Origin: Candidatus Marinacidobacterium sp.
Lineage (GTDB): Bacteria > Acidobacteriota > Vicinamibacteria > Marinacidobacterales > Marinacidobacteraceae
DNA: 64,000 bases
Reading direction: 5' to 3'
Assembly: GCA_965204755.1 (NCBI GenBank)
Contig: OZ242011.1
Location: forward strand, 928,001-992,000
Below the pieces are notes generated by a model. The model made no database searches, was not told where the DNA came from, and saw only the letters and a list, made by a program, of their open reading frames with translations. This document shows, piece by piece, positions 19,201 through 34,250 of the stretch (within the stretch, counting starts at the first letter, position 1; each line of letters starts with the position of its first letter). The translations under genes were made by a program, and so were the position numbers.

Positions 19201-19755
19201 CGGGAAGTCGGCGGCGCGGGCCACCGCGTGGACGCCGAGGCCGAGGGCGGCGGCGTTGCCGCCGGCGTCGCCGATCGTCCCGCCGTTCAGCGCGATCTCC
19301 GAAACGCCGATCCCGTCGGCGTCCACTTCCCCGGCGCCCACCGCGTAGCGGAAGACCAGCCGGGCCGAACCGCTGCCGGAGGACTCGTAGTCCGCGTAGC
19401 GGGAGTACGCGCCGACGGCGAGCAGGAGCCGCGGCGTCCCGCCGGTCGCGTCCACCGTTACCGGCTCGCTGAAGGTGACCGCCGCCTCGATGGCGTCGCC
19501 GGCGATGTACGCGCCGTTCGCGCCCTGCGGCGCCGGCGGGACGCCGGCGAGCGAGAGCCCGGTAACCGTCGGGGCCACCGCGTCCCCGGCGGCGGCGTCC
19601 ACCGCCGGGCCGCCGGCGGTTACCGCGTGGGCGCCGAGGCCGCGCGCCGCGTCGTTCGGAGTCGCCGCCCCGTCCCGGATCGTCCCGCCGGTGAGCGCCG
19701 CCGCGCCGATGCCGATCCCGTCCGCGTCGGCGTCGCCGGAGGCCACGGTGTAGCG
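1102..19755 (-). CDS. Giant Ig-like repeat protein, middle segment (~6,180 aa, ~50 repeats); continuation of the gene above
   Basis: In the 8046-aa ORF (1102..25242) only the part from ...RYTVASGDADADG (~19755) onward has the repeat consensus; the preceding ~1830 aa are Arg-rich off-frame translation. Consensus is lost again at VNGALP|TWFRR (~1221). Confidence 0.85.
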   Translation of the reverse strand, partial: RYTVASGDADADGIGIGAAALTGGTIRDGAATPNDAARGLGAHAVTAGGPAVDAAAGDAVAPTVTGLSLAGVPPAPQGANGAYIAGDAIEAAVTFSEPVTVDATGGTPRLLLAVGAYSRYADYESSGSGSARLVFRYAVGAGEVDADGIGVSEIALNGGTIGDAGGNAAALGLGVHAVARAADFPVNGNAADAVGPSVTGAAVSGTGRGAGGVFLAGDVLAVTLEFSEPVTVGGTPQVALGLTTTGGTPRADYFSGSGTASLVFRYTVAAGDADADGVSVGAAALALNGATIRDASGNAAALGLGAHAIADGDAVVNGGAADPAPTVTGLALAGVPPAPQGAGGAYRAGDAVEAAVTFSEAVTVTGTPQVALTIGTTDKQADYASGSGTATLRFRYAVVSGDADADGISVAATALALNGGTIQDLAPDGATPNDAALGLGTHAVANDSNFVVSGSAADGTGPRVVGLRLSGSGQGAGGAFIAGDRIEATVRFDEAALVTGPPQLALTVGANTRQAGYVSGTGDEELVFRYTVAAADADADGISVGASALALNGGTIRDAAGNAAALGLGAHAAADAAGFVVAGAAADAAAPTVTGVTVSGSGRGRNGVFIAGDALEITAAFSEPVTVTGNPQAVLAVGANTRRADYESSGSGTAAAVFRYTVVPADADADGIGVSALSLNGGRIEDASGNAAALALGDHAVTAAPNSVVDGSAADTLSPTVTGLTLAGVPPAPQGAGGTYRAGDEIEATVTFSEPVTVTGTPQLAFGIGADIRQVDYASGSGTAALVFRYQVVAGDTDGDGISVTASALTLNGGTIRDGAATPNDAALALGSHAISDNSDFPVNGAFVDSVGARVLSVTPTGTGSGPGGAFVAGDVIVWEVRFSEPVTVTGTGTPHLTVYFGADTLANQRRVRYSSGSGSALLRYRYAVASADEYAGGSMTWVLFQSATSWGIEDRAGNRGPSAQDLNYRPAGFLVDGDGADLAGPAVTGATLGGLAQGAGGVFIAGDAIEATLAFDEPVTVTGTPQVTLILASGARRADYSSGGGTSELVFRYTVVSGDSDPSGVSVGGSALSLNGGTLADASGNAAALSLGSHALTDDAGARVNGRGADARAPTVVGLAAGGTGTGPGGVFIAGDHLDLTVEFDEPVTVTGTPRVALTLASGTRYAAYHSGSGTSSPVFRYTVVRSDTDADGITVSASALESNGGTIRDLATPPNAASLGLGEHALAAGGPAVNGSAPEAVPPTVTGLSLGGLAQGANGVFIAGDRIEATVTFSEEVTVTGTPRLALTVGANTRQAAYASGSGTRDLVFAYAVAAGDADADGITVAASALALNGGTIADARDTDARLGLGTRTVTAGGPAVAGGGTDARRPAVAGARLGGRPEGANGRFIAGDDLEVTVEFDEPVTVTGTPRVALAVGAATRQAAYALGSGTASLVFRYTVAAGDADPNGVAVPASALTLGGGTIRDAAGNAAALALGAIPDAAGFPVAGANADAVAPVVTGVSLSSLRPPHFSAGVYGAYETIVVAVAFSEPVTVTGTPQVAITLGDTNPNNFRGTLPAPYASGSGGTTLRFHWDIPRGALFDFDGISIGASALTLNGGTIRDAANHAAALGLGAHAFTNRGDFSINANSQDPRRPSMTVKTPGGIPSGAGGVFTAGDALYWEIGFDEPVLVVGSPRYRFTLGGGTAREADYLSGSGSTLLRFRYVTQAADRYSSGTIPDTLVTDNANRIKDRETHQGGNDANPVGGAHSLPAGFRVDGSLADVVGPKVVGVTLGGTARGANGVFLRGDEIEATVEFHEPAAVTGTPRLALAVGSAVRHADYASGSGTTRLVFRYAVRASDADADGIGASALAPGGGTIADAAGNAASRGLGDHATEGGGPAVDGSLRDTVAPTVTGLTLAAGSPQGAAGAYIAGDVLEAAVTFSEPVTVAGAPQLTLTVGAAARAAAYASGGGTTSLVFRYAVVASDADADGIGVGASALGLNGGSIADRDGNAAALDLGTHAVANASGFVVNGSLSDTVRPTLTHIVPGGTPNGANGVFIAGDVIVWEARFSEPVTVAGSPRMTYRLSLDPPTRVAGYHSGSGTSRLRFRSTVQSGDSYSAGGPLVAEITASSTVRDRAGNAVDLLAGHRVERRGFHVDGTAADRVGPGVVGLTLGGTASGANGVFIAGDEIEATVEFHEAATVTGTPRLALAVGSAARRAAYASGSGTSSLVFRYTVAAGDADPNGIGVGASALALNGGSIADSTGNAAALGLGAHAITDGDLVVNGAGTDGTAPTVTGLTLSGSAPQGADGAYREGDRIEAAVAFSEPVTVTGTPQLALTVGALTRQAAYVSGSGTASLTFRYAVASGDSDSDGIGVGASALTLNGGSIADAAGNAAALGLGTHALTAAAAFPVNGSLSDTVAPTILSVTPGGFGNGAGGVFTAGDFIFWEVRFSEPVVLPRFGQGSFTFAFPNGVPRTAAFDYRTAPRRATDRYRYRYAVAAGDAYTGGTIRFDFSGLRGSDAAGNRVSTTGSPEIDLTGFRVDGAAADAAGPAVVSLHLDPYTTQGANGTYIAGDDITVRLEFHEPVTVTGTPQLALDIGSATRQVPLTAINSTRRWLRFSYVVRAEDSDADGISIGGSALTLDGGAITDGGGRAASLDLSRHAITDHPAVVVDGSGADATPPTISAQGFNWRASGRPNGAGGVYVAGDSFTFGYRFSEPVFVTGSPRVRLTVGSATRYADYAGGSGGEVVLFRYTVQAGDSDADGVSAHSWDPGSATIRDRGGHDVPALAPGVSGPIPAIIVNGAAADVRAPAVAGLTLGGIGQGANGVFVAGDLIEATVEFDEAVTVTGQARVVLTVGAASRPADYASGSGTTSLVFRYTVVAADADADGISATAITAASIADAAGNNAAVGLGAHAITDGGLVVNGGGADVLAPPVTGLALSGLANGANGAFIAGDILEATVDFREAVTVTGTPRLALSVGAATRYADYESSGGGTSSLLFRYLVAAADEDADGVTVAASALALAGGTIRDGAGNDAALDLGPHAVTAGGPAVDGGGADAAGPVVTGVAVSGDRQAVSSGVPVFTAGDRIVVTIAFNEAVTVTGTPQAALTVGASTRQAAYVSGSGTSSLEFRYTVAASDSDGNGVGVGASALSLNGGTLADAAGNAANLDLGAHAVSDLRGTVVLGGQGDSRRPAVIGLTLAGGAPGAQGANGKYIAGDALEVTVAFDEPVTVTGTPRVALGVGANTRHAAYASGSGTDSPVFRYEVVRADADPDGPSIGASALALNGGTIADAAGNAAALALGSHAVENAAGFVVKGSDPDTLAPTVAGVTVGGRAHGAGGVFLAGDEIEATVDFDQPVTVTGTPQAALTIGADTRQAGYVSGSGTSSLLFRYAVGAADRDRDGLAVGAGALSLNGGTLKDGAGNDALLGLGAHAVADGEGPAVDGGARDTVAPTVTGLTLASLAPAPQGAGGVHTTGDAIEATVEFSEAVLVTGTPRLAFFLTLGEIRQAPYVRGSGTTSLVFRYTVAAGDRDPDGVTIGGGALNLDDGTITDRVTHNARLPLPPGAAVDNDRRFRVDGSAADSVAPAVSGLALSGRADGAGGVFIAGDAIAATVEFTEPVTVTGTPRLALGVGRATRYAAYASGSGTRSLVFRYAVVREDYDRNGVSVGASALALNGGSIGDGTNAAALALGSGAVEDAAGFRVDSAAADRRGPAVVGLALSGNGRGAGGVFLAGDRIEATVEFDEPAAVTGAPRLALAVGANTRQAAYESGSGTTSLVFRYAVAADDRDDDGVSVPASALSLNGGSIEDSSGNDASLGLGAHAVEGGAVVGGLVVDGSARDRVVPTVTGLAISGRPQGSASGNPEFIAGDEIAVTVSFSEVVVVSGRPQVALTLVTGVRQARYAGGSGTSSLEFRYAVVAADAAANGIGIGASALTRNGGSIRDLADNPAALGLSRHAVAGDTRARVQGASPDTLGPAVTGVSLSGTGQAADGAFIAGDAIEATVEFHEEVTVAGGTPRLALAVGAAARRADYRASGSGTKRLTFRYAVAAGDRDADGIGVPASALTLPAGVTIRDAAGNAASLSLGAHAVANAAGFRVNGAAADRRGPAVTGLTVSGGASGANGVFIAGDAIEVAVAFDERVTVTGAPQVALEVGANTRPAAYASGSGTASLRFRYAAAAADEDPDGLTVLASALALNGGTIRDDAGNDAALGLGAHAVTAGGPAVDGDGADAAAPTVTGLAVGGVRQGSDAGGAHFAGGDRIEVTVEFSEPVTVTGTPRLALTVGANTRQADYASGSGTGALVFRYTVAGGTDPDSDADGLSVAASALALNDGTIADRAGNAAALGLGAHAVTNDGDSRVLGNSVDKQGPTVTGVSLSGTPNGARGVFIAGDGIAVTVEFHEAVTVTGTPRVALAVGRASRSAAYVSGGGTTALTFRYRVARGDADADGVGVSALSLAGGKITDGAAPPNPAALDLGAHAAANDPRFPVRGSAPDAVAPTVTGVRVAGAASGANGVFIAGDRIEVTVEFHEPVTVTGTPRLALAVGAAARQADYASGSGTRSLLFRYAVAAGDAAPDGITVGASALALNGGRIRDRAGNDAGIGLGAHAVASGGPVVTGAGTDAVAPTVTGLALSGRPQGDGGAYREGDAIEAAVSFSEPVTVTGTPRLALTVGTFTRQADYASGSGTSALVFRYTVVGGTAPDSDADGIGVAASALTLNEGSIADAAGNAAALGLGTHAVANAAAFRVAGAFPDSRAPAVVGVTLSGRAQGVLPFRGAGGGAGGLFVAGDALVVTVEFDEAVTVTGTPRVALAVGAATRQADYASGSGTTALAFRYAVAAADFDRDGVSVGASALALNGGSIADAAGNAAALGLGAHAVASDGDFPVNGAGADATGPTVTGVSLSGTGQGADGVFVAGDVIRATVSFHEPVTVTGAPQLALTVGAAARPAAYASGSGTASLVFRYTVVRADADADGITIAASALGLNGGTIRDRATPTPNAASLDLGAHAVTNDDDFEVDGDAADAVAPTVTGVVVSGDKQGVRATGPVFIAGDEIVVTVTFSEPVTVSGTPQVDLGFGGDTLAGYVSGSGTASLEFRYEVLAGDTQAGFTVGASALSLNGGTIADAHGNAAALGLGTVPGLHFVVPNLADGVGPTVAGLALSGSGRGAGGAFLAGDRIEAVVEFTEPVTVTGTPRLALVVGEDTRRAAYVSGSGTDSLRFRYAVVRGDEAPAGIEVPASALTPAGGTIADAAGNAAALDLGEHAVAADAAFVVDGAGADTRAPSVVGVRLSGAANGANGVFIAGDRLEVTVVFDEPVTVTGTPRVALTVGAATRYAAYVSGGGTTSPVFRYTVARADRDADGVSVGASALDLNGGKIADAANRAANLPLGTREIANDADFRVDGAAADAVGPVVTGVALSGRANGANGVFVAGDEIFAAVEFSEPVTVTGSPRLALTVGTATRHAGYVSGGGTRSPVFRYTVAAGDAAPSGLGVAASALALAGGTIADAAGHAAALSLGAHAITDDRRFVVDGAVADSVAPTVVGISLSGTGQGPGGVFVAGDVIFVTVEYSEAVLVAGAGPQVVLQVGPRSSDTRRAAYASGSGTASLVFRYRVGAGDRDADGVSVNPGGLGNLVATARIVDAAGNQAALTLGRTNSIVDDGDFIVDGGAADGVVPAVTGVSVGGTARGANGTFILDDVIEVTVEFHEAVTVTGTPQLALDIGGATRYANYALGSGTPSLVFRYTVFSTDADANGLGIGASALSLNGGTVADASGQAAALGLGDHAITDGDHPVDGGGTDGDAPTVTGLILSGNPQGARGVFRAGDAIEAAVTFNEPVTVTGTPRLALTIGTATRQANYASGSGARTLLFRYIVASGDADANGIGVSAAALTLNGGTIRDGANRDAALGLGTHAIANDGRVPVNAAAADAAPPRVTGTTFSGAGSLAVGAFGVGDTIDITIEFNEAVTVSSTTDVVVIAGSRTLGAPYLSGSGTTSLVYRYTVGYGHYDADGLSLTSLVAAYAAPRDSAGNRWHPDHQPETDYRIYNDSNFLVYGAGSYLMTGVSVTGAPQGAGGFYTAGDALEVTITYNRAVEVTGGTPQVPLTIGSATRHADYASGSGTSSLVFRYTVVAADRDLNGISLGERILDGIQIRGPDWNLRAYAFTDDPRLRVNGALPTWFRRRSSGRPPSGAAGGRAASSSPGKRSSGRWSSPSR

Positions 19756-22700
19756 AAGACCAGCGAAGTCGTCCCGCTCCCGGAGGCGTAGGCGGCCTGG
19801 CGGATGGCGCTGCCGATGGTGAGCGCCACCTGCGGGGACCCGGTAACCGTTACCGGCTCGCTGAACTCGACCGTGACTTCGAGGACATCGCCGAGGACGA
19901 AGGTCCCGTTCGCGCCCTGCGCCTCGCCGCCGACGGTGACCCCGGTAACCGTCGGGGCGGCGGCGTCGGCGCCGCCCCCGGCCACCACGAAGCCGCCGTC
20001 GTCCGCGATCCCGTCCCTGCTGGTCGCGCCGCCGGCGAGGTCGGCGGCGTTGCCGGAGGCGTCGGTGATGCTCCCGCCGTTCAGCGCGAGCGCGGAGGCG
20101 GGGACGGCCACGCCGTCGGCGTCGGCGTCCCCGGAAACGACGGTGTAGCGGAAGACCAACGATCTCGTCCCGCTGCCGGAGGCGTAGTCGGCCTGGCGGG
20201 TGGGCGCGCCGACGCCGACGCCGACGGCGAGGGCCAGCCGCGGCGTCCCGGTAACCGTTACCCGCTCGCTGAACTCCACCGCCGCCTCGATCGCGTCCCC
20301 GGCGATGAAGGCGCCGCCCGCGCCCTGCCCGGTTCCCGAGAGGGTCACGCCGGTAACCGTCGGCGCCTGCAGGTCCGCCGCCGCCCCGTCCACCGGGAAG
20401 TCCGGGTGGTCGGCGACCGCGTGGGGCCCGAGGCCGAGCGCCGCCGCGTTGCCGGAGGCGTCCGCGATCGTCCCGCCGTTCAGGGCGAGCGCGGAGGCGG
20501 GGAGGCCCGCGCCGTTCGGGTCGGCGTCCCCCCGGACGACGAGGTAGCGGAAGGTCAGCGAGTCCGTCCCGCTGCCGGCGGCGTAGTCGGCGAGGCGGGT
20601 GGCCGCGCCGACGGTGATCGCCGCCTGCGGGGTCCCGGTAACCGTTACCTCCTCGCTGAAGACCACCACCGCCTCGAGTTCGTTTCCGGCGACGAAGACG
20701 ACGCCTTCGCGGCCGCCGCTGCCGCCGTCCGGGTTCCCGGCGAGCCGGGCCCCGACCACCGTCGGGCCCACCCGGTCGCCGGCGGCGGCGTCCACCGGGA
20801 AGCCGGCGGCGTCGGCGACCGCGTGGGCGCCGAGCCCCAGCGCCGCGTCGTTCCCCGCGTCGTCCCGGATCGTCCCGCCGTTCCGGGTGAGCGCGGCGGC
20901 GGGGACGCCGAGCCCGTTCGGGTCGGAGTCGCCGGCGGCGACGGCGTAGGCGAAGACCAGCCGGGTCGTCCCGCTGCCGGATTGGTAGGCCGCCGGGCGG
21001 GTGAGCAGGCCGACCGCCAACTCCAACTGCGGGGTGCCGGTAACCGTTACCGGCTCGCTGAAGGAGACCGTCGCCTCGAAGGCGTCGCCGGCGATGAAGA
21101 CGCCGTTCGCGCCCTGCGGCGCGGTCCCGACGGCGGAGAGGCTCACCCCGGTCACCGTCGGCGCGACGGTGTCGGAGCCGCTCCCGTCCACCGGCCGGGC
21201 CGCCAGGTCTCCGTCGGCGATCGCGTGGGCGCCGAGGCCGCGCTCGGCGGCGTTCCCCGCGGCGTCGCGGATCGTCCCGCGGTTCAGTTCGAGGGCATCG
21301 GCGGCGACGCTGACCCCGTTCGCGTCGGTGTCCCCGGCGGCGACGGTGTAGCGGAAGAGCAGCGAGGAAGGCCCGCTGCCGGCGGCGCGGTAGTTCGCGT
21401 AGCGGGTGGCCGCGCCGACGGTGAGGACCAGCCGCGGCGTCCCGGTAACGGTTACCGGCTCGTCGAAGTCCACCGTGAACTCCAGGAAGTCGCCGGGGAC
21501 GGAGGTCCGGGCCGGGCCCGACGGCTCGCCGCCGGCGGTGAGCCCGGTCACCGTCGGCGGCCTCCGGTCGGCGCCGTCCCCGTCCACCGGGAAGGCGGCG
21601 GCGTCCGGGATCGCGTGGCTGCCGAGGTCGAGGGCGGCGAGGTTGCCCGCCGGGTCGGCGATCGTCCCGCCGTTCGTCCCGCCGTTGCGGGAGAGCGCCG
21701 AGGCGGCGACGGACACGCCGTTCGCGTCCTCGTCCCCGGCGGCGACGGTGTAGCGGAAGACCAGCGAGGAGGTCCCGCTCCCGGAGGCGTAGTCCGCCCG
21801 GCGGGCGGCCTCGCCGACGGTCAACGCCGCCTGCGGCGTCCCGGTAACGGTTACCGGCTCGCTGAACTCCACGGTGAGCGCGATCTCGTCCCCGGCGATG
21901 AAGGCGCGCGGAGCGTTGACCGAGGGGGCGGCGCCCTGGCCGGTCCCGGAGAGCGCGGCGCCGGTGACCCGGGGGGCGATCCGGTCCACCGACCCGTCCA
22001 CCCGGAAGGCGGCGTCGTCCGGGAGGGCGCGGGCGCCGAGGCCGAGCGCCGCGTTCCGGCCGGCGCGGTCGGTGATCGTCCCGCCGTTCAGCGCGAGCGC
22101 CGAGGCGGCGACGGCGACGCCGTCCGGGTCGGCGTCCCCCCGGGCGACGGTGTAGCGGAAGGTGAGCGTGGTGGAGCCGCTTCCGGAGCGGTAGTCCGCC
22201 GGCCGGGCGGCGCTCCCCACGGTGAGCGCCAGCCGGGGGGTCCCGCCGGTCGCGTCCACCGTTACCGGCTCGCTGAAGGTGACCGCCGCGTCGATGGCGT
22301 CGCCGGAGATGAAGACGCCGTTCGCGCCCTGCGGCGCGGTCCCGACGGCGGAGAGGGTGACGCCGGTTACCGAGGCCGCGGCGCGCCCGGCCCCGTCCAC
22401 CACCGCGCCGCCGGCGGCGGCGGCGTGCTCGCCGAGGTCGAGGTCGGCGGCCAGCGAGCCGTCGGCGATCCGCCCGCCGTTCGCCCGGAGCGCCGAGGCG
22501 GCGAGGGTGATCCCGTCCGCGTCGGCGTCCGCCCGGACCACGGCGTAGCGGAAGACCAGGGAGGCGGTCCCGCTGCCGGAGGCGTAGGTCGCGTAGCGGG
22601 TGGCCGACCCGATCCCGAGCGCCACCCGCGGGGCGCCGGTAACCGTCACCTCCTCGCTGAAGTCCACGGTTACTACCAGGGCGTCCCCGGCGAGGAAGGC

Positions 22701-25700
22701 GCCGTCCGCGCCCCGCGCCGTCCCGGAGACGGTCACCCCGGCCACCGCCGGGGCGCGGACATCGGCGGCGGCGGTGTCCACCCGGAAGCGGGGGGCGCCG
22801 ACGATGAACCCGTGGTGGAGGTGGGCCGAAAGGTCGAGCGAGGCGGCGTTGCCGGCGGCGTCCACGATGGGCCCGGCGCTCCGGCCCGGCCCTGCCTCCA
22901 CCCCCAGCGAATTGGCGAGGAATCCGATCCCGTCCGCGTCCAGGATCCGGTCGCCGGGGGCGGGGGTGGGCACCGTCCAGCGGAAGGTCAGGGAACTCGT
23001 CCCGCTGCCCGACGGCCGGCGCGCGGTACCGGTGTGGCCGGTCAGGAAGACCAGGAGGTTCGCGCCGGTGGTAACGGTTACCGGTTCGCTGAACTCGACG
23101 GTGATGGAGATCCGGTCGCCGGAGGTGAACACCCCGCCGGCGGCGCTCCCCGTCCCCGCCAGCCGGAGCCCGGTAACCCTCGGGGCGACGGTGTCCTCCG
23201 CCCCGCCCTCCACCCGGAAGCGGCGGTCGTCCGTCACCGCGTGGGCGCCGAGGCCGGGCAGCGCGTCGCGGTTCGCGCGGTCCCGGATCGTCCCGCCGCT
23301 GCGGTCGAGCGCGGAGGCGGCGACGCTGATCCCGTCGTCGTCGGCGTCGCCGCGGGCCACCCGGTAGCGGAAGCGGAGGGTGCGCGTCCCGCTGCCGAGC
23401 GCGTAGTCGGCGTAGCGGGCGGCGGTCCCGACGGTGAGCGCGAGGCGCGGGGCGCCGGTAACCGTTACCCGCTCGCTGAAAGTCACCGCCGCTTCGACGA
23501 GGTCGCCGGCGGTGAAGACGCCGCCCTCGCCCTGCCCGCTCCCGGAGAGCGCGAGCCCGGTAACCGTCGGGGCGGCGGCGTCCGTCCCGCTCCCGTCCAC
23601 CGCCGCGCCGCCGTCGGTTACGGCGTGCTCCCCGAGGCCGAGCGCGGCGGCGTTCCCGGAGGCGTCGGCGACGGTCCCGCCGTTCAACCGCAGGGCCGAG
23701 TCGCCGAGGCTGACCCCGTTCGGGTCGCGGTCCTCCGGCGCCACGGTGTAGCGGAAGACCAGGGCGGAGGTCCCGCTGCCGCGCGCGTAGTCGGCGTAGC
23801 GGAGGACCCGGCCGACGGCGAGGGCCGCCCGCGGGGTCCCGGTAACCGTCGCCGGTTCGTGGAACTCGACGGTGATCTCGAGGTCGTCGCCGGCGATGAA
23901 GACCCCTCCGGCGCCGCTGGCCACGCCGCCGACGGTTACCCCGGTTACCGCCGGCCCCTCCGCGCCGCCCCGCACCACGAAGTCGGGGTCGCTGGTTATG
24001 GCGTGGCTGCCCAGGTCGAGCGCGGCGTCGTTCCCGGCGGCGTCCCGGATGTGGCCGGCGCCGGGGATGCGGATCCCGCTGGCGCCGACCCCGGACGGGG
24101 CGGAGTGGAACCGGCTCACCTCGAGGACGAAACCCAGGTGACTCGTCCCGCTGCGGATCCCCTGCATGTAGGCGGGAGTGCTCGGGGACAGGGAGGAAAC
24201 GACCAGTTCCGGAACCCCTCCCACGGAGTGCTCGGTGATCCGCTCGCTGAACTCGACGGTGAACAGGATCTCGTCCCCGTTGACGAAGACGCCGCCGGGG
24301 CCGGAGCCGGTTCCCGAAATCGTCAGCCCGGTGATCGTCGGCGCCGCCGTGTCCGCCGCCGCGCCGTTCACCGTGGCGCCGGAGTCGTCCGCGATCGCGT
24401 GGGCGCCGAGGCCGAGCGCGGCGTTGTTGTTCGCCCGGTCCCTGATGGTCCCGCCGGCCAGCGAGAGCGCCGAGGCGCCGGCGGAGACCCCGTTCGCGTC
24501 GGCGTCGCCGGCAACCACGGCGTAGCGGAACACCAGCGCGCTCGTCCCGCTGCCGGAGGCGTAGGACGCGTACCGGGTGGCGGTCCCCACGGCGAGCGCG
24601 AGCCGGGGGGTCCCGGTAACCGTTACCGGCTCGCTGAAGGACACCGTCGCTTCCAGCACATCGCCGGCGATGAAGACGCCGTTCGCGCCCTGCGGCGCCG
24701 GCGCGGCGCCGGAGAGGGCCGCCCCGGTTACCGTCGGGACGACGGTGTCCGTCGCGCCCCCGGCCACCACCGGGCCGCCGTCGGTTATGGCGTGGGTCCC
24801 GAGGCCGAGCGCGGCGGCGTTCCCGGCGGCGTCGGCGATCGTCCCGCCGTTCAGGGTCAGCGCCGAAGCGCCGATCCCGACGCCGTTCGCGTCGGTATCG
24901 CCGGCGGCCACGGCGTAGCGGAAGACCAGCGCGTTCGTCCCGCTGCCGGAGGCGTAGTCCGCCCGGCGGGTGTCCGCGCCGACGGTCAGCGCCGCCTGCG
25001 GGGTCCCGGTAACCGTTACCGCTTCGGTGAAAGTGACGGTTACCTCGATTTCGTCGCCGGCGATGAAGACGCCGTTCGCGCCGCGCCCGCTGCCGGAGAG
25101 CGTCACCCCGGCCACCGTCGGCGAAGTCGCGTCCGCCCCGTCCCCGTCCAGTACGAAGTCGGGGTGGTTCGCGACGGCGTGGCTTCCCGGGTCGAGCGAC
25201 GCGTCGTTGCCGGCGGCGTCCCGGAGGGTGACGCCCCGCCACAGTTGGAGGATGCCGGTGCTGATCCCGTCCGCGTCGGCGTCGGTCGCGAGCACGGTGT
25301 AGCGGAACACCAGGGAACTCGTCCCGCTGCCGGAAACGAGTTCCGCGAGTTGCGTGTTGTGGTTGAGGTGCACGAACGCGGCGCCGCTCCCGGTCTTGGT
25401 TACCGGTTCGCTGAACTCGACGGTTACGGTGATCTCGTCCCCGGCGACGAAGACGCCGCCCGGGCCGGTTCCGGTTCCCGAAAGCGTTACCCCGGTGATC
25501 GTCGGGGCGGCCCCGTCCGCCGCGGCGCCGTTCACCGTGAAGGCGGCGTCGTTCGCGATCGCGTGGGTCCCGAGGCCGAGCGCCGCGTCGTTCGGCGTCG
25601 CGTGCTGCGACCAGTCCCCGTCGCCGATGAAGTCCTTGATCGTCCCGCCGTTCAGGGCGAGCGCCGAGGCGCCGACGCCGATGCCGTTCGCGTCGGCGTC

Positions 25701-28700
25701 GCCGGAGGCGACGGTGTAGCGGAACGCCAGCGTGGCCGTCCCGCTGCCGGAGGCGTAGTCGGCCTGGCGGGTGGCGCTCCCGATGGTGAGCGCCAACTGC
25801 GGGGCCCCGGTTACCCGGACCGGCTCGTCGAACTCCACCGCCGCTTCGATCGCGTCGCCGGCGCGGAAGACCCCGCCCGCGCCGGTCCCGGCGCCCGACA
25901 GCGTGAGCCCGACCACCGTCGGCGCCACCTGGTCCCGGTTCTGCCCCCGCAGGGAGAAGTCCCCGTCGCGCGCGAGCGCGTGCGACCCGAGGTCGAGCGC
26001 GGCGGCGTTCCCCGCGGCGTCCAGGATCGTCCCGCCGTTCAGCGCGAGCGCCGAGGCGCCGACGCTGAGGCCGTTCCGGAACCAGTCCCGCGCCTCCACG
26101 CGGTAGCGGAACACCAGCGAGGCCGTCCCGCTGCCGGACGCATAGTTCGCGTGGCGCGTCCCCCGGGTGTTGCCTTCGTGGCCGGTGAGCGCGAGCCGGG
26201 GCGTCCCGGTAACCGTTACCGGCTCGCTGAAGGTGATCGTCGCTTCGAGCACATCGCCGGCGATGTAGTTGTTCCGGTCGTTCTTCTTGACGCCCGCCAG
26301 CGCGGCGCCGACGACCGCGGGTTGGGCCGCGCCGGCGCTCCCGTCCACCTTGAAGTCGGGGTGGTCGGTGATGGCGTGGGTTCCGAGCGCGAGCGCCGCG
26401 TCGTTCGGCGTGGCCGCCCCGTCGGCGATCGTCCCGCCGTTCAGCGCGAGGGCCGAAGCGGTAACGGAGATCCCGTTCGCGTCGGTGTCCGCCGCCGCCA
26501 CCGTGTAGCGGAAGACCAGCGAAGTCGTGCCGCTGCCGGAGGCGTAGTCCGCCTGTTTCGTGGCCGCGCCGACGGTGAGCGCGACCTGCGGGGTCCCGGT
26601 AACGGTCACGATCTCGTCGAAGCGCGCGGTTACCTCGATCCCGTCCCCGGCGCGGAAGGCGCCGTAGTCGGCGGTCCCGGTTCCCGAGAGCGAAACGCCG
26701 ACCACCGTCGGGCTGCGGGTATCGGCGGCGGTCCCGTCCACGGTGTAGCCGCCTTGGTCGCGCAGCGCGTGGCCGCCGAGGGCGAGCGCGGCGTCGTTCC
26801 CGGCGCGGTCCCGGACGGTGGCGCCGGGCGGAGCGGCGAGCGCCGAGGCGGTAACGCTGATCCCGTTGGTATCGGTATCCCCGGAGGCGACGGTGTAGGC
26901 GAAGACCAGTTCGGTCGTCCCGCTCCCGGAGGCGTAGTCCGCCTGCCGGGTGGCGCTGCCGACGGTGAGCGCCAACTGCGGCGTCCCGGTAACGGTTACC
27001 GCTTCGCTGAAGGTTACGGTCGCTTCGATGGCGTCGCCGGGGACGAAGGCGCCGCCCGCGCCGTTCGCCACCCCGGAGAGCGAAAGGCCGGTAACCGTCG
27101 GCGCGAGGGTGTCGCTCCCGTCCCCGTCCACCGCGAGGTCGCCGTCGGTGATGGCGTGGCTCCCGAGGCCGAGCGAGGCGGCGTTCCCGGAGGCGTCGGC
27201 GATCGTCCCGCCGTTCAGCGAGAGCGCCGAAGCGGCGACGGAGATGCCGTTCGCGTCGTCGTCCGCCGTTACCACGGTGTAGGCGAACGCGAGCGAAGTC
27301 GTCCCGCTGCCGGAGGAATAGTCCGCCGGTTTCGTCGCCGCGCCGATGGTGAGCGCCAACTGCGGGGTCCCGGTAACCGTTACCGCCTCGCTGAAGGTAA
27401 CGCTCGCTTCGAGCCGGTCGCCGGCGACGAGGACGCCGCCGGTTCCCGACCCGCTTCCCGAAAGCGTCAGTCCGGTAACGGTCGGGCCGGCGGCGTCCGC
27501 CGCGCCGCCGTCCACGGTGTAGTCGTCGTCGTCGGCGATCGCGTGGGCGCCGAGGCCGAGCGAGGCGGCGTTGCCGGCGGCGTCGGTGATCGTCCCGCCG
27601 TTCAGGGCGAGCGCCGAGGCGCCGACCGAGACGCCGTCGGAGTCGGCGTCGCCGGCGGCGACGGTGTAGCGGAAGGCCAGCGAGGCCGTGCCGCTTCCGG
27701 AGGCGTAGTCGGCCTGGCGGGTGGCGGCGCCGACGGCGAGGGCGGCCCGCGGGGTCCCGGTAACCGTGGCCGCTTCGTGGAAGTCCACGGTTACGGTGAT
27801 CCGGTCGCCGGCGGTGAAGACGCCGTTCGCGCCGGTGCCGGTCCCGGAGAGCGAAACGCCGGTCACCCGGGGGCCGGAGAGGTCCTGGTAACTCCCCTGC
27901 ACCCGGAAGCGGAAGTCGTTCGTTACCGCGCGCGAGCCGAGGGAGAGGGTTTCGGCGGTGGCGGCGTTGCCGTCGGCGTCGGCGATGGTCCCGCCGTTCA
28001 GGGTGAGCGCCGATGCGCCGATGGAGATGCCGTCGGCGTCGGCGTCGCCGGCGGCGACGGTGTAGGTGAAGCGCAGGGTGGTCGTCCCGCTGCCGGAGGC
28101 GTAGGAGGCCTGGCGGGTGGCGGTCCCTATGGCGAGGGCCAACTGCGGGGTCCCGGTAACCGTCGCCGCCCGGTTGAACTCCACGGCGGCGGTGATCTCG
28201 TCGCCGGCGCGGAAGATGGCGCCGCCGGCGCCGCCGTTCCCCTGCCCGGAGAGCGAGACCCCGGTTACCGTCGGGCCGGAGACCGCCGCCGCGCCGCCGT
28301 CCACCAGCAGGGCGGGGTCGTCGGCGATCGCGTGGTCACCGAGGCCGAGGCTCGCGGCGCCGTCCTCGTCGGCGATGCTCCCGCCGTTCAGGGTCAGCGC
28401 CGAGGCGCCGACGGAGACGCCGTCGGTGTCGGTGTCGCCGGCGGCCACGGTGTAGCGGAAGACCAGGGTGGTCGTCCCGCTGCCGAGTGAGTAGGCCGCG
28501 TGGCGGGTGGCGCCGCCGACGGTGAGGGCGACCTGCGGGGTCCCGGTAACCGTTACCGGCTGGTCGAACGCCACCCGGACTTCGAGGGTGTCCCCGGCGA
28601 TGAAGGAACCGCTCGGCCCCCTCCCGGCCCCGGACACCGTTACCCCGGCCACGCTCGGCGGAGCGCCGTCCCCGTCCACCATGAGCGGCCCGTCGGTAAA

Positions 28701-31175
28701 CGCGTAGGCGGAGAGACTCAGGTTCGCCTTGACGCCGCCGGCGGTTTGGATCGTTCCGCCGTTCAACTCGAGGGCGGACGCCCCCATGCTGATGCCGTTC
28801 GCATCTTCGTCCTCCGCCTGCACCCGGTATTGGAAGTAGAGGATGGGTGCGGCGTAGGTGACGAAACTGGCGTAGCGGGTCGCGGTCCCGATACCCAGCG
28901 CCACTCGCGGCGTGCCGGTGACCACGACCGTTTGGGACGCAGACATCGAGATCTGGATACGGTTTCCGGCGATGGCGACTGCATTGCTGTGTTGGCCGTC
29001 GTAATTCGACACATGAATGTTGGTCATCGTCGGCCCGGCCGGCGCCGCGGCGCCGTCCACCGTGAAGCGGGGGTCGTCGGTGATCGCGTGGTTTCCGAGG
29101 TCGAGCGCCGCGTTGTGCGCCGCGGCCGAGGTATCCCGGATCGTCCCGCCGTTCAGCGCGAGCGCCGAAGCGCCGACGCTCACCCCGTTCGGGTCGGCGT
29201 CCCCGGTTGCCACGGTGTAGCGGAAGACCAGCGCGTTCGTGCCGCTGCCGGAGGCGTAGGCCGCCTGCCGGGTGTTCGCGCCGATCGCGAGCGCCGCCTG
29301 CGGGGTCCCGGTTACCGCCACCGGCTCGCTGAAGTCCACGGTTACCGCCAGGGAGTCCCCGGCGCGGAAGACGCCGCCGGCCCCGCTCGGCGACCCGGAG
29401 AGCGCCGCCCCGGTAACCGTCGCCCCGGTAACCGTCGGCGCGGTCTCGTCCGCCGCGCCGCCGTCCACGACGAAGGCCGGGTCGTCGGTGATCGCGTGAC
29501 CCGAAAGGTCGATCTCCGCCGCGCCGTCGGAGTCCCCGATCGTCCCCCCGTTCAGCGCCAGCGCCGAAGCGGAAACGGAGATGCCGTCGGCGTCGGAGTC
29601 GCCGGCGGCCACGGTGTAGCGGAACGCCAGCGTCGTCGTCCCGCTGCCCGAGGAGTACGGCGCCTGCCGGGTTCCGTCGCCGAGCCCGAGCGCCACCTGC
29701 GGCGCCCCGGTAACCGCCGCCGCCTGGTCGAACTCCACCCGGACCTCGACGGCGTCGCCGGCGATGAAGACCCCGTTCGCGCCCTGCCCGGTCCCCGCGA
29801 GGGACACGCCGACCACCTTCGGGACGCCGCCGTCCCCGTCCACGACGAAGGAGGAGTCGTCGGTGATCGCGTAACTGCCGAGGTCGAGCGCCGCGGCGCC
29901 TTCGGAGTCCCCGATACTCCCCCCGGCCAGCGTCAGCGCCGAAGCCCCGACGGAGACGCCGTCGGGGTCGGCGTCGGAGGCGGCCACCGTGTAGCGGAAC
30001 GCCAGCGTCGCCGTCCCGCTGCCGGAGGCGTAGTCCGCCTGCCGGGCGGTCGTCCCGACGGTGATCTCGACCTGCGGCGTCCCGCTCACCGTCGCCGGCT
30101 GGTCGAACTCCACCCGGACTTCGAGCGCGTCGCCGGCGACGAAGGCGCCGCCGGAACCGGTCCCGGTCCCCGCGAGCGTCACCCCGGCCACCCGCGGGGC
30201 GCCGCCGTCGCCGTCCACCGTGAAGTTCGGGTCGCCGGAGATCTCGTAACCGGAGAGGCCGAGCGCCGCGTTGCCGTCCGCGTCCCGGATGGCCCCCCCG
30301 TTCAGGGTCAGCGCCGCAGCCGGGACGCCCACCCCGTCGGAGTCGGCGTCGGAGGCGGCCACCGTGTAGCGGAACGCCAGCGTGGTCGTCCCGCTGCCGG
30401 AGGCGTAGTCCGCCTGCCGGGTCCGGGTCCCGACGGTGAGCGCGGCCTGCGGCGTCCCGATCACCGCCGCCGGCTGGTCGAACGACACCCGGACTTCGAT
30501 GGCGTCCCCGGCGATGAAGGCCCCGCCCGCGCCGGTCCCGCTCCCGGCGAGCGAGACCCCGGTTACCCGCGGCGGGCCGCCGTCCCCGTCCACCACCGCG
30601 TTGCCGTCGGTGATCGCGTAGCCGGAGAGGCTCAGGTCGGCGGCGACCCCGTTGGAGGAGATCGTCCCGCCGTTCGCCTCGAGCGCCGAGGCCCCGATGC
30701 TGAGGCCGTCCGCGTCCTCGTCCTCGACCACCACCCGGTAGGTGAACGCCAGCACCCCCGACCCCCGGTTCGCCGACCAGCCGGCGTACCGCGTCCGGCT
30801 CCCGATGCCGAGCGCCACCCGCGGCGCGCCGACCGCGGCCACCAGCGGGTCGTTGAACCGCACCCGCACCTCGATGTCGTCCCCCGCCACGAACACCCCG
30901 CCCGACCCGCTCCCGCTCCCCACCAGGTCCACCCCGCTCACCCGCGCCGGCGTCGCCTGCGCCGCCCCCGCGCGAGCGCCCGTTCCGGCCGTCCCGGCCG
31001 TCCCGGCGCCGGCGGACGAAACCGCCCCCGAAACCGCCCCCGAAGCCGCCCCCGAAACCCCCGCCGAAACGGCCAGCCCCAGGACGGCGCCGGCGAACGC
31101 CGACGCCCCCCGAAGTCCCCGGAGCCCCCGGAGCCCGAGGAGCCCGCGGACGGCCCCGAACATCGGCCCCGACAC
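19620..31175 (-). CDS. Giant Ig-like repeat surface protein/adhesin, N-terminal segment (signal-peptide-like start, ~30 repeats); true frame continues past a frameshift at ~19755
   Basis: 3851-aa ORF. Basic then hydrophobic N-terminus (LRGLRGASAFAGAVLGLAVSAG...AAQA) followed by tandem repeats PTVTGxxLSG..GxFxAGDxIExxVxFSEPVTVTGTPxLALxVG...YASGSGTxxLxFRYTVxxGDxDxDGI...LxLNGGTIxDxAGNxAxLxLG. The repeat consensus is lost abruptly at SLVF|ATPW. The real start may be ATG 31365 via the poly-G tract. Confidence 0.85.
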   Translation of the reverse strand: MSGPMFGAVRGLLGLRGLRGLRGASAFAGAVLGLAVSAGVSGAASGAVSGAVSSAGAGTAGTAGTGARAGAAQATPARVSGVDLVGSGSGSGGVFVAGDDIEVRVRFNDPLVAAVGAPRVALGIGSRTRYAGWSANRGSGVLAFTYRVVVEDEDADGLSIGASALEANGGTISSNGVAADLSLSGYAITDGNAVVDGDGGPPRVTGVSLAGSGTGAGGAFIAGDAIEVRVSFDQPAAVIGTPQAALTVGTRTRQADYASGSGTTTLAFRYTVAASDADSDGVGVPAAALTLNGGAIRDADGNAALGLSGYEISGDPNFTVDGDGGAPRVAGVTLAGTGTGSGGAFVAGDALEVRVEFDQPATVSGTPQVEITVGTTARQADYASGSGTATLAFRYTVAASDADPDGVSVGASALTLAGGSIGDSEGAAALDLGSYAITDDSSFVVDGDGGVPKVVGVSLAGTGQGANGVFIAGDAVEVRVEFDQAAAVTGAPQVALGLGDGTRQAPYSSGSGTTTLAFRYTVAAGDSDADGISVSASALALNGGTIGDSDGAAEIDLSGHAITDDPAFVVDGGAADETAPTVTGATVTGAALSGSPSGAGGVFRAGDSLAVTVDFSEPVAVTGTPQAALAIGANTRQAAYASGSGTNALVFRYTVATGDADPNGVSVGASALALNGGTIRDTSAAAHNAALDLGNHAITDDPRFTVDGAAAPAGPTMTNIHVSNYDGQHSNAVAIAGNRIQISMSASQTVVVTGTPRVALGIGTATRYASFVTYAAPILYFQYRVQAEDEDANGISMGASALELNGGTIQTAGGVKANLSLSAYAFTDGPLMVDGDGAPPSVAGVTVSGAGRGPSGSFIAGDTLEVRVAFDQPVTVTGTPQVALTVGGATRHAAYSLGSGTTTLVFRYTVAAGDTDTDGVSVGASALTLNGGSIADEDGAASLGLGDHAIADDPALLVDGGAAAVSGPTVTGVSLSGQGNGGAGGAIFRAGDEITAAVEFNRAATVTGTPQLALAIGTATRQASYASGSGTTTLRFTYTVAAGDADADGISIGASALTLNGGTIADADGNAATAETLSLGSRAVTNDFRFRVQGSYQDLSGPRVTGVSLSGTGTGANGVFTAGDRITVTVDFHEAATVTGTPRAALAVGAATRQADYASGSGTASLAFRYTVAAGDADSDGVSVGASALALNGGTITDAAGNAASLGLGAHAIADDDDYTVDGGAADAAGPTVTGLTLSGSGSGTGGVLVAGDRLEASVTFSEAVTVTGTPQLALTIGAATKPADYSSGSGTTSLAFAYTVVTADDDANGISVAASALSLNGGTIADASGNAASLGLGSHAITDGDLAVDGDGSDTLAPTVTGLSLSGVANGAGGAFVPGDAIEATVTFSEAVTVTGTPQLALTVGSATRQADYASGSGTTELVFAYTVASGDTDTNGISVTASALAAPPGATVRDRAGNDAALALGGHALRDQGGYTVDGTAADTRSPTVVGVSLSGTGTADYGAFRAGDGIEVTARFDEIVTVTGTPQVALTVGAATKQADYASGSGTTSLVFRYTVAAADTDANGISVTASALALNGGTIADGAATPNDAALALGTHAITDHPDFKVDGSAGAAQPAVVGAALAGVKKNDRNNYIAGDVLEATITFSEPVTVTGTPRLALTGHEGNTRGTRHANYASGSGTASLVFRYRVEARDWFRNGLSVGASALALNGGTILDAAGNAAALDLGSHALARDGDFSLRGQNRDQVAPTVVGLTLSGAGTGAGGVFRAGDAIEAAVEFDEPVRVTGAPQLALTIGSATRQADYASGSGTATLAFRYTVASGDADANGIGVGASALALNGGTIKDFIGDGDWSQHATPNDAALGLGTHAIANDAAFTVNGAAADGAAPTITGVTLSGTGTGPGGVFVAGDEITVTVEFSEPVTKTGSGAAFVHLNHNTQLAELVSGSGTSSLVFRYTVLATDADADGISTGILQLWRGVTLRDAAGNDASLDPGSHAVANHPDFVLDGDGADATSPTVAGVTLSGSGRGANGVFIAGDEIEVTVTFTEAVTVTGTPQAALTVGADTRRADYASGSGTNALVFRYAVAAGDTDANGVGIGASALTLNGGTIADAAGNAAALGLGTHAITDGGPVVAGGATDTVVPTVTGAALSGAAPAPQGANGVFIAGDVLEATVSFSEPVTVTGTPRLALAVGTATRYASYASGSGTSALVFRYAVVAGDADANGVSAGASALSLAGGTIRDRANNNAALGLGAHAIADDSGATVNGAAADTAAPTITGLTISGTGSGPGGVFVNGDEILFTVEFSERITEHSVGGVPELVVSSLSPSTPAYMQGIRSGTSHLGFVLEVSRFHSAPSGVGASGIRIPGAGHIRDAAGNDAALDLGSHAITSDPDFVVRGGAEGPAVTGVTVGGVASGAGGVFIAGDDLEITVEFHEPATVTGTPRAALAVGRVLRYADYARGSGTSALVFRYTVAPEDRDPNGVSLGDSALRLNGGTVADASGNAAALGLGEHAVTDGGAAVDGSGTDAAAPTVTGLALSGSGQGEGGVFTAGDLVEAAVTFSERVTVTGAPRLALTVGTAARYADYALGSGTRTLRFRYRVARGDADDDGISVAASALDRSGGTIRDRANRDALPGLGAHAVTDDRRFRVEGGAEDTVAPRVTGLRLAGTGSAAGGVFTSGDRISITVEFSEPVTVTTGANLLVFLTGHTGTARRPSGSGTSSLTFRWTVPTPAPGDRILDADGIGFLANSLGVEAGPGRSAGPIVDAAGNAASLDLSAHLHHGFIVGAPRFRVDTAAADVRAPAVAGVTVSGTARGADGAFLAGDALVVTVDFSEEVTVTGAPRVALGIGSATRYATYASGSGTASLVFRYAVVRADADADGITLAASALRANGGRIADGSLAADLDLGEHAAAAGGAVVDGAGRAAASVTGVTLSAVGTAPQGANGVFISGDAIDAAVTFSEPVTVDATGGTPRLALTVGSAARPADYRSGSGSTTLTFRYTVARGDADPDGVAVAASALALNGGTITDRAGRNAALGLGARALPDDAAFRVDGSVDRIAPRVTGAALSGTGQGAAPSVNAPRAFIAGDEIALTVEFSEPVTVTGTPQAALTVGEAARRADYASGSGTSSLVFRYTVAAGDEDANGVSVAASALSRNGGTNGGTIADPAGNLAALDLGSHAIPDAAAFPVDGDGADRRPPTVTGLTAGGEPSGPARTSVPGDFLEFTVDFDEPVTVTGTPRLVLTVGAATRYANYRAAGSGPSSLLFRYTVAAGDTDANGVSVAADALELNRGTIRDAAGNAAERGLGAHAIADGDLAARPVDGSGSDTVAPTVTGVSLSAVGTAPQGANGVFIAGDAFEATVSFSEPVTVTGTPQLELAVGLLTRPAAYQSGSGTTRLVFAYAVAAGDSDPNGLGVPAAALTRNGGTIRDDAGNDAALGLGAHAVADAAGFPVDAAAGDRVGPTVVGARLAGNPDGGSGGREGVVFVAGNELEAVVVFSEEVTVTGTPQAAITVGAATRLADYAAGSGTDSLTFRYLVVRGDADPNGAGLPASALALNGGTIADASGNAAALGLGPHAVADHPDFPVDGAAADLQAPTVTGVTLSGTGQGAGGAFIAGDAIEAAVEFSERVTVTGTPRLALAVGVGVGAPTRQADYASGSGTRSLVFRYTVVSGDADADGVAVPASALALNGGSITDASGNAADLAGGATSRDGIADDGGFVVAGGGADAAAPTVTGVTVGGEAQGANGTFVLGDVLEVTVEFSEPVTVTGSPQVALTIGSAIRQAAYASGSGTTSLVFATPWPPATPTRTGSASARRRSPAGRSGTGRRLRTTRRAASAPTR

Positions 31176-31325
31176 CGGACGGACCCCCGGCCCCCGCCCT
31201 ACCGGCGCGGGGCGGGGCGAACCCCCTCCCCGCGCCCTGCCCCGCGCGACCCCCTGCGCGATTCCCCGACCGACTCGCCGACCGGCGCCCCGCGCCGCCC
31301 GGCGCGCCCTACCGGATGATTTTCC

Positions 31326-31349
31326 GGGGGGGGGGGGGGGGGGGGGGGG
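31326..31349. repeat. Poly-G24 homopolymer (poly-C on coding strand) just downstream of ATG 31365; candidate phase-variation tract
   Basis: Directly visible. The frame of the giant ORF is stop-free from 31364 through the tract to 31175; ATG at 31365 is 1 nt out of frame with G24. Confidence 0.9.
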
Positions 31350-31504
31350 TAGCCCTGTTACCCATCACCGGACGAAACCGCGCCCCCAAGACGACCGCCG
31401 CGACCGCCGCGACCGCCGCGCCGACCGCGCCGGGGCGCCGCCCCCCGCGAAGACCACCCCGCCCTCCCCGCGCCGCCCGGCGAGCCCTACCGGCAGTTTT
31501 TTCC

Positions 31505-31526
31505 GGGGGGGGGGGGGGGGGGGGGG
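31505..31526. repeat. Poly-G22 homopolymer just downstream of ATG 31542; second candidate phase-variation tract
   Basis: Directly visible; same flanks as the first tract (cgccgcccggcgNgccctaccgg...ttttcc-Gn-Yagccctg). Confidence 0.9.
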
Positions 31527-31838
31527 CAGCCCTGAGCCTCATCGCAAGGCGAAGACGCGCGGCGCGTGGTCATGTGCGGCAGGTATCGGAAAACGCCCGC
31601 CCGCGCCGCCGCGCGGCCTTTCCCCGGCCCGACCCCGACGCGCCGGCGGGCGAGCCGCCCAAAATACCGGAATCCCCCCCGAATTTCCACCCCTAACCCC
31701 CGCGGCCCCTCCCCCGCCCCGAGGAGAGCGCCCTCTCCGGGCCCTGCCGCGAATCGCCGCGCGATTCCCCCCGCCGTCTTTCGCCGGAAGGGGGACACCC
31801 CTCCCCGCGCGCCTCCCGGCGACCCTCCCCGGTCGCCG

Positions 31839-33008
31839 CTACCCGCCGACGGACGCTCCCCCGATGTTCTCGTTGTCGCCGTCGTCCTCCGGCGGCGGCG
31901 CGTTCTCCAGGATGAAGTCCATCAGGCTGGGAATCCCCGGCTCCCAACTCAGCGTCCCCCGCGCCTGCCAAACGAACCCGAGACGCTCCAGCGCCTCCGC
32001 CGCCTCGCCGATACCCGGCCTGCCCCCGCCGCTTCGCGCAACGGCCCGGCGGAAGGCCGCGTGGCTCAACAGGCCCTCCTCCGGAAACGCCGCCGCCACC
32101 GCCCGCGCCGCCGGGAGCAACTCCCTCTTCTCCAGTTCCCGGTAGCGGTCGATGTAGTAGTCGTTCCGCTCCGCCTCGAACTCCCCGACGGCTTCCTCCA
32201 CGACGGCCATCGTCACCGCGCCCGCTCCGCCGCCGGCCCCGCGCACCCGGTCCCACGCCGCGTGTCCCCACAACTGCACGAAGAACGGATACCCGTGGCT
32301 CTCCCGGACCATGCGCCCCAGCGCCTCCTCCTCGACCCCGATCCCGTCCTCGGCCAACGGCCGGCGGATCGCCTCCCCGGCGGCCCCCTCGTCCAACCGG
32401 CCCACCGGGAGTTTCTTGGCCCGGTTCCAGAAGGACGCCCCCATCTCGGAGAGCCGCGCCCGCAGGTCGGGCGTCCCGGCGAGAACCAACAGGAACGGCG
32501 CCCGGCGGCCGGCGGTCTGCGCGGCGTTCAGCAACCACTGCCCCACCTCCGGCTTCAGCGTATGCGCCTCGTCCAACAGGATCAGCAGGGGTTTCGCCTT
32601 CGCCCGCGCCTCCAGCGCCTCCGCGAGCAACAACGGCCGATCCTCGCCCCGCCGCAGCGAAAACCCCACCCCCGCAACCGAAACGCTCTCCGGCGCGATC
32701 TTCCGCAGCCACGAACCGAGCCCCAGCCGGGCCACGAAGTCGCCCGGCGACGGGATCTCCGACCCGACCAGCCAATGCGCGTCCAGCCCGCCGTCGCTCT
32801 CGGCCTCGCCCTCGACCCAGGCCAGCAGCGCCGTCTTCCCGTTACCCCGCGGCCCGTAGACGACGAGCAACCGCGCAACGGGAACGCCGCTCCGCAGGTC
32901 GTCCGATGCCTCGCGGAAAAGCGCCTGCTCCTCTTCCCGTCCGGCCATGTACGGGGGCAGCCTCCCGGTACCGGGCTGGAACGGGCCGAGTTCGGTCGAA
33001 ACGACCAT
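31839..33008 (-). CDS. AAA/P-loop ATP-binding protein (AAA_16-like, STAND-like architecture), paralog A, 389 aa
   Basis: PFQPGTG..PPYMAGRE, Walker A GPRGNGKT, Walker B LILLDEAH, SHGYPFFVQLWG; start MVVSTELGPF chosen by alignment to paralogs. Confidence 0.88.
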   Translation of the reverse strand: MVVSTELGPFQPGTGRLPPYMAGREEEQALFREASDDLRSGVPVARLLVVYGPRGNGKTALLAWVEGEAESDGGLDAHWLVGSEIPSPGDFVARLGLGSWLRKIAPESVSVAGVGFSLRRGEDRPLLLAEALEARAKAKPLLILLDEAHTLKPEVGQWLLNAAQTAGRRAPFLLVLAGTPDLRARLSEMGASFWNRAKKLPVGRLDEGAAGEAIRRPLAEDGIGVEEEALGRMVRESHGYPFFVQLWGHAAWDRVRGAGGGAGAVTMAVVEEAVGEFEAERNDYYIDRYRELEKRELLPAARAVAAAFPEEGLLSHAAFRRAVARSGGGRPGIGEAAEALERLGFVWQARGTLSWEPGIPSLMDFILENAPPPEDDGDNENIGGASVGG

Positions 33009-33052
33009 GCCCGCCAAGTATGGAAACGCCGACCGGCGAACGCCGCGAGCCG

Positions 33053-34204: not shown

Positions 34205-34213
34205 CGCCCGCCA

Positions 34214-34219: not shown

Positions 34220-34250
34220 GGAACGCCGAGCGCCGATCGCCGGCGAGCGG

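Follow-up and report, generated by a model that had tools for sequence, protein, structure and literature searches.

Phase variation by slippage in homopolymer tracts is documented mainly in host-adapted pathogens. The closest known case to the locus studied here is the C-stretch in the fim2, fim3 and fimX promoters of Bordetella, where changes in length alter transcript abundance (PMC1891110; PMC10172299). The text of the survey of Bordetella tracts mentions tracts of up to C19, with 22 given in its Table 1 for fim3 of B. bronchiseptica, and the survey considers promoter overlap improbable for tracts that lie more than 150 nt ahead of the start codon (PMC1891110), as is the case here. In both systems, the bacterium is GC-rich and a gene for a surface structure is preceded by a long C tract. 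The Bordetella tract overlaps an experimentally defined promoter near the start codon and stands beside a conserved 'fim box', whereas our locus has two tracts, 150 and 329 nt upstream, and neither is flanked by a -35/-10 pair. That is, the Bordetella-type promoter arrangement (a tract overlapping the promoter between activator site and -10 box, near the start) is not found here.

With regard to two tracts per gene, the nearest precedent is the adhesin gene sabA of Helicobacter pylori, which carries a repeat tract in its promoter region and a second repeat in its 5' coding region (PMC2715451, PMC4081817). As in our locus, there are two separate slippage-prone tracts, and the promoter-proximal one of sabA acts as a graded 'rheostat'. 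The other sabA tract is coding and gives a true frame switch, whereas our tracts are both non-coding copies of one module.

Two further systems share single aspects. The poly-G tracts of the tpr genes of Treponema pallidum are thought to set the level of transcription. They resemble our case in that poly-G/C tracts lie upstream of genes for outer-membrane proteins; in contrast, the tpr tracts are much shorter and lie beside the transcription start, and both the organism and the gene family are unrelated. The mgtA and mgtCBR leaders of Salmonella contain leader ORFs with Pro codons and are subject to Rho-dependent attenuation. Here, the likeness consists of a long 5' leader, short proline-coding ORFs and C-rich RNA that possibly governs read-through, whereas our locus shows no sign of translated leader ORFs, of Rho dependence or of alternative RNA structures.

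We analysed a window, i.e., the whole stretch of 64,000 nt, from a Candidatus Marinacidobacterium bacterium with 74% GC; the nearest relatives of its proteins are found in metagenome genomes of Acidobacteriota. Our search of the literature on homopolymeric phase variation in Acidobacteria found no such locus. As the best explanation, to which we assign a probability of roughly 0.45, the two tracts are hypermutable, non-coding and probably leader-borne, and may modulate the expression of a giant surface-type gene. If confirmed, contingency loci would no longer be limited to host-adapted species but include environmental bacteria, and would act on one of the cell's costliest proteins.

Poly-C tracts and their duplicated module

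Both tracts are located in a gap of 663 nt (31838-31176) between an array of ATPase genes, the third of which (31839..33008) is directly upstream, and the giant gene. The GC content of the window is 70-79% throughout. The relevant features in and next to the gap are as follows.

35393-34251, 34204-33053 and 33008-31839, minus strand: three tandem ATPase paralogs of about 380 aa (AAA_16/AAA_22), with 72-78% mutual identity
31466..31560, minus strand: module copy 1, consisting of an upstream block with ATG 31542, tract 1, GGAAAA and the 28 nt of CCGGTAGGGCTCGCCGGGCGGCGCGGGG
31505..31526, minus strand: poly-C tract 1, 22 nt (poly-G on the plus strand); GTG 31175 lies 329 nt downstream
31392..31430, minus strand: tandem repeat located between the modules, with 3-4 units of 9 nt that resemble GCGGCGGTC; its translation gives the 'AVAAVAAV' segment
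31288..31383, minus strand: module copy 2, with ATG 31365, the tract and GGAAAA; the short ORF ends at its TAG (31311-31309)
31326..31349, minus strand: poly-C tract 2, 24 nt, located 150 nt before GTG 31175 and 162 nt before ATG 31163
31196..31205, minus strand: exact copy 3 of CCGGTAGGGC, lacking a C tract; GTG 31175 follows 20 nt downstream

Within the whole window, C or G runs of at least 11 nt are restricted to these two tracts, the next longest runs being 8 nt. Overlapping C11 matches amount to 26 (0.88 expected), every one of them within the two tracts, and this count was reached in 0/100 shuffles. The homopolymer tracts are genuine and far longer than composition predicts.

Each tract is part of a module with the layout ATG..AGGGCT-R-C(n)-GGAAAA-N-CCGGTAGGGCNCGCCGGGCGGCGCGGGG. 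All sequence statements of the original prediction on two such modules, with C tracts of 22 and 24 nt, hold. The copies are spaced by 177-178 nt and show 81% identity over 96 nt (blastn); individual alignments between them reach 90% over 61 nt (from the tract into the downstream block) and 80% over 56 nt. The 28-nt downstream block CCGGTAGGGCNCGCCGGGCGGCGCGGGG agrees at 27/28 positions, and the upstream block with the ATG shows about 68% identity (hand count from the alignment). The module was duplicated in tandem, with a unit of about 178 nt and a conserved core of about 96 nt. Exact copies of CCGGTAGGGC are found three times in the window, all inside the 663-nt gap. We also considered the module as a degenerate copy of the giant gene's start region and rejected this, given that only the 9-mer CGTCCGGTG is common to both, with 3 occurrences found vs. 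2.9 expected.

A duplicated module would also fit tracts without function that grew by slippage in duplicated intergenic DNA and were tolerated there, next to a giant gene that may be a pseudogene. The region is duplication-prone (three tandem ATPase paralogs and what is left of the C-terminus of a fourth), repeats of 9 and 12 nt are close by, the giant gene shows two frame breaks, and the module is present in 0/18 related loci, with its pattern unmatched in species-representative genomes. We nevertheless consider tracts without function somewhat unlikely. Both tracts are pure although their upstream flank has diverged to the extent given above; pure tracts together with a kept 28-nt block look like constraint or gene conversion. 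Pure G/C tracts of great length mutate readily and are usually lost. Furthermore, the tracts occupy a classical position before a surface-type gene.

The giant gene, its start and the proposed frame switch

The giant gene covers more than 10,390 codons of the window on the minus strand and is interrupted by two single-base breaks, each in a short C run of the coding strand. Based on codon-position GC, one frame is used from 31175 to about 19755 and another from there to 1102.

19620..31175, minus strand: giant gene segment 1, 3851 codons from GTG 31175; the stored model P0003 (3847 aa) starts at ATG 31163
19745..19763, minus strand: frame break 1, where the repeat motif CTGGTCTTCCGCTACACCGT is short by one C
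1102..19754, minus strand: giant gene segment 2, continuing this repeat gene but entered in the protein collection on its own as P0002 (6166 aa)
1217..1228, minus strand: frame break 2, within gcgctcccgacc; the repeats go on in register in ORF 2..1282

The full-length motif CTGGTCTTCCGCTACACCGT has 37 matches in the window (at most 2 mismatches), and its shortened form is found in 1 copy. ORF 2..1282 extends past the window end. P0003 and P0002 both sit on a contig of 3,975,858 nt. Together with this contig size of 3.98 Mb, the single-base breaks suggest homopolymer consensus errors; the alternative is real inactivating mutations. If they are errors, the assembled tract lengths are not trustworthy to 1 nt either, and if they are mutations, the gene may already be inactive. 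In both cases, there is no firm ground for the earlier statement that the leader ORF is exactly 1 nt out of frame and that the assembled state looks 'OFF', which needs lengths exact to 1 nt. With such breaks in the very same gene, the values 22 and 24 should be read as approximate.

One could also ask whether the organism's DNA lacks the tracts altogether, or lacks them at the assembled lengths. The breaks are typical of homopolymer miscalls, and the size of the contig would point to long reads. An artefact of this kind is still highly improbable, because the tracts are internal to a megabase-scale contig, with flanks that are unique and mutually homologous on both sides, and an artefact would not make tracts twice with diverged flanks. 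It is the exact lengths alone that are doubtful.

The giant protein starts with MFGAVRGLLGLRGLRGLRGASAFAGAVLGLAVSAGV, i.e., an Arg-rich and then hydrophobic N-terminus that would fit an export signal, followed by all-beta repeats of about 129 aa. A single-repeat query identified 77 repeat units in both frame segments, 62 of them at full length. The repeat domain modelled from aligned units is all-beta with confident scores (pLDDT 94.4, pTM 0.85) and has no match in the PDB at E <=0.001, neither by fold nor by sequence. Pfam provides just partial multi-copy matches on the giant gene (PepX_C, RabGGT_insert, Big_5), and more distant relatives of the protein bear cadherin-type annotations. The 5' coding end (window 31000-31175, minus strand) is composed of 9- and 12-nt tandem repeats with GLR, AVSG and MFGP units.

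Searching with the extended N-terminus yielded 44 proteins of near length and 33 shorter ones, i.e., 77 altogether. Besides P0003, the sole close relative among them is P0005, with all others at <=55% identity. P0005 (2573 aa, on a contig of 64,143 nt) is 90% identical to the giant protein and begins with MFGPMFGPMFEVVRGLLGLRGLRG, that is, with the same MFG-motif start and without a poly-proline extension. Since P0003 and P0005 both begin at the MFG motif, coding starts there in both. The two proteins differ by whole repeat units of the MFGP, GLR, AVSG and TATA type, which means that the 5' end of the gene does undergo in-frame changes of the slippage type. A poly-proline extension is absent from all 8 N-termini examined among the 77 proteins, the other 69 being distant (<=55%).

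These starts bear directly on the mechanism put forward by the original prediction, namely a frame switch in which the tract is part of a leader ORF. There, a tract of 23, 26 or 20 C would join ATG 31365 and the signal peptide in one frame, turning the protein ON, with ATG 31542 providing a second alternative N-terminus. The arithmetic is right: ATG 31365 is 1 nt off the giant frame and its ORF ends at TAG 31311-31309, ATG 31542 is in frame with ATG 31365, and the ATG is retained in both module copies. We could also confirm that the giant frame is free of stops from 31364 to 31175, its nearest upstream stop being 31367. Both frame relations are at chance level, however. The two ATGs are 177 nt apart because the module was duplicated at that spacing. 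A stop-free stretch of 63 codons, for its part, has a probability of about 0.5, as it arises in about 0.52 of gap shuffles and as 0.57-0.67 of the 63-codon windows in all frames of the window are stop-free. More generally, open frames in DNA of 75-80% GC are uninformative, and frame arguments from assembled homopolymer lengths are unsafe.

Codon-position GC provides no coding signal within the gap. For the proposed extension (31325-31176, giant frame), GC at codon positions 1/2/3 is 0.86/0.86/0.76, vs. 0.76/0.63/0.95 for the first 200 codons of the giant gene; the 77-aa ORF from the original prediction shows 0.79/0.76/0.81. Neither ATG 31542 nor ATG 31365 is preceded by a purine-rich ribosome-binding site, and no -10 box is positioned for a leaderless start at either of them. 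A search of the protein collection with the intergenic 103-aa ORF found no match, itself included. The short ORF from the module ATGs reads MRLRAAPPPPPPPEKTAG...AVGAAVAAVAAVVLGA...MGNRATPPPPPPPRKIIR; the hydrophobic part of the segment that ATG 31542 was said to add is the translated 9-nt tandem DNA repeat (31392-31430).

Given the flat codon-position GC, the chance-level open frame, the duplication-derived ATG spacing and the lack of a ribosome-binding site or leaderless -10 box, the tract region is non-coding. That is, the tracts are outside coding sequence. A fusion would furthermore place a 68-residue Arg/Gly-rich extension ahead of the signal-peptide-like segment of a gene that has its own start, which is retained in the 90%-identical relative. 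A length-dependent fusion to the signal peptide is hence very improbable. What stands of the slipped-strand idea are two long pure tracts before a giant gene as a plausible contingency element, and what falls is the translational switch.

Promoter candidate and leader RNA

A standard sigma-70 scan of 30900-32100 gave no site, and no -35/-10 pair was found flanking either tract. Using a looser rule (>=8/12 matches, A at -10 position 2, T at -10 position 6), we obtained 1 site on the gene's strand in the gap and 7 in the whole window on both strands. The number of sites expected by chance in the gap is 0.02-0.04.

31661..31689, minus strand: sigma-70-like promoter candidate (TGGAAA, 17-nt spacer, TATTTT), upstream of both tracts

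Its position overlaps that of a weak hairpin which, with its T run, resembles a terminator. As a consensus match, the candidate is to be taken as a lead only. If 31689-31661 is a promoter, both tracts are transcribed within a leader of about 490 nt. Behind both tracts lies the hexamer TAGGGC, which does not end in T as a -10 box would and whose -35 position would fall inside the C run, such that a promoter spacing like that of Bordetella is not supported. The organism seems to use canonical -10 boxes, as TATACT or CATACT is located 9-10 nt before the ATG in all three ATPase paralogs; for these genes, the position of the boxes suggests leaderless or very short-leader transcripts. An ECF-sigma-type promoter common with the divergent ECF sigma gene was considered as well and rejected: only GC-rich 8-mers are shared, without a GGAAC-N-CGTC-type site.

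Following our preferred reading, i.e., modulation by non-coding tracts, both tracts would be transcribed into a leader of about 490 nt that is otherwise G-rich. Runs of such length probably change their length often via slipped-strand mispairing. Tract length, if functional, would then set the amount of full-length giant-gene transcript, with a graded or an on/off effect at promoter or leader level and with no upstream ATG being fused to the signal peptide. The two module copies would represent two independently mutating settings.

Several of the above observations are in line with this. The tracts are real and far beyond chance, they belong to a duplicated module whose downstream block is conserved at 27/28 positions, and the gap is non-coding by codon-position GC. 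The start at the MFG motif is found in the stored model as well as in the 90%-identical relative, and the 5' coding end varies from P0005 by whole repeat units. In addition, the sole promoter candidate of the gap (31689-31661) contrasts with 0.02-0.04 expected by chance, a C15 tract is located at a frame change within a DNA-methylase ORF in the genome with the closest ATPase relative, and in GC-rich Bordetella, C tracts of fimbrial promoters control transcription (PMC1891110). On the other hand, the tracts are farther from the start codon than is usual for promoter-overlapping tracts, neither is flanked by a -35/-10 pair, and the promoter candidate is a mere consensus match overlapping a weak terminator-like site. 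The leader matches no RNA family and shows no unusually stable fold. With two frame breaks, the gene may also be decaying, in which case the upstream tracts need no function.

The composition of the leader allows for a role of the tracts that is independent of their length. Rho prefers C-rich, G-poor RNA. The leader RNA is G-rich, with a C/G ratio of about 0.5 in 78-nt windows except for 2.1 and 1.57 at the tracts. Thus, the poly-C tracts show the C-rich, G-poor composition of a Rho-dependent attenuator, with Rho dependence itself being putative. Every reading frame through a tract encodes 7-8 prolines, and the template (plus) strand bears G22 and G24. The tracts might therefore act via Rho loading (rut-like), poly-proline stall sites and/or a template G-quadruplex, and attenuate a gene of more than 31 kb. 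We consider such an element distinctly unlikely: in the predicted leader folds, the C runs base-pair to adjacent G runs and would thus be inaccessible to Rho, nothing indicates that translation begins at the module ATGs, and no known RNA family matches. In detail, Rfam 15 gave two chance-level matches only for 30800-32200 (E 4.6 and 7.8), and within the whole window gathering scores were reached by three tRNAs alone. None of the predicted folds is unusually stable, with z-scores of +3.9, +1.0 and +1.6 for the leader and each module vs. shuffles.

Both ideas can be combined into a two-stage gate within the leader, which we regard as improbable. Here, each poly-C run would be a Rho-loading site and at the same time the poly-proline core of a short leader ORF, and slippage at two independent tracts would give several heritable expression settings. 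The TAG within CCGGTAGGGC is conserved and located just behind each poly-C run. A ribosome that has passed tract 2 would terminate at TAG 31311-31309, terminate at TAG 31201-31199 immediately ahead of the true start, or enter the main frame, and tract length would choose among these three outcomes. If true, a protein of more than 10,000 residues would be switched in a free-living high-GC bacterium rather than in a host-adapted pathogen.

Related loci and neighbourhood

We retrieved 18 related loci via the neighbouring ATPase, nearly all of them from Acidobacteriota-type metagenome genomes. The closest ATPase (61% identity) is from a Candidatus Marinacidobacterium genome, while the remaining loci belong to Vicinamibacterales, Bryobacterales and one Pseudomonadales metagenome genome. 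Among these 18 loci, blastn found no copy of the module, and in no case is the ATPase followed by a giant gene. Likewise, scanning species-representative genomes for the pattern C10-GGAAAA-N2-7-CCGGTAGGGC gave 0 matches.

G/C runs of at least 9 nt are present in 3/18 related loci (15, 18 and 11 nt), with flanks unrelated to the module. The C15 tract (locus L002, 4939-4953, from a Candidatus Marinacidobacterium genome) is part of a DNA-methylase ORF (PF01555), lies exactly at a change of the coding frame and follows an AT-rich inverted repeat; it is either a candidate for a phase-variable methyltransferase or a homopolymer miscall. The C18 tract is from the same genome (locus L003, 6165-6182) and is intergenic, between an ORF ending at 6311 and a gene with CBS/GCS2 domains (3928-5895), i.e., upstream of the latter. 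Long C runs at classical phase-variation positions thus exist in comparable high-GC genomes.

Relatives of the ATPase occur in multiple copies and in tandem arrays in Acidobacteriota-type genomes, e.g., three in a row in locus L005. In the window, the C-terminal remnant of a fourth ATPase is located at 35433-35530. Divergent from the array, 35659-38003 (plus strand) harbors an ECF-type sigma factor gene and a long ORF without family match, which may be the anti-sigma partner. GC skew of the plus strand is strongly negative over 30001-36000 (-0.12 to -0.20), which makes the sense strand of the ATPase genes and of the gap rich in G; a slight skew of opposite sign is seen for the giant gene, although it is encoded on the same strand as the ATPases. 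Farther away, 43865-53515 (minus strand) encodes two RND efflux permeases and an RND adaptor. At 47785-50196, the ORF of the adaptor has roughly double the usual length and includes a stretch of exceptionally high GC (about 48100-49000) that lacks a clear codon-position signal.
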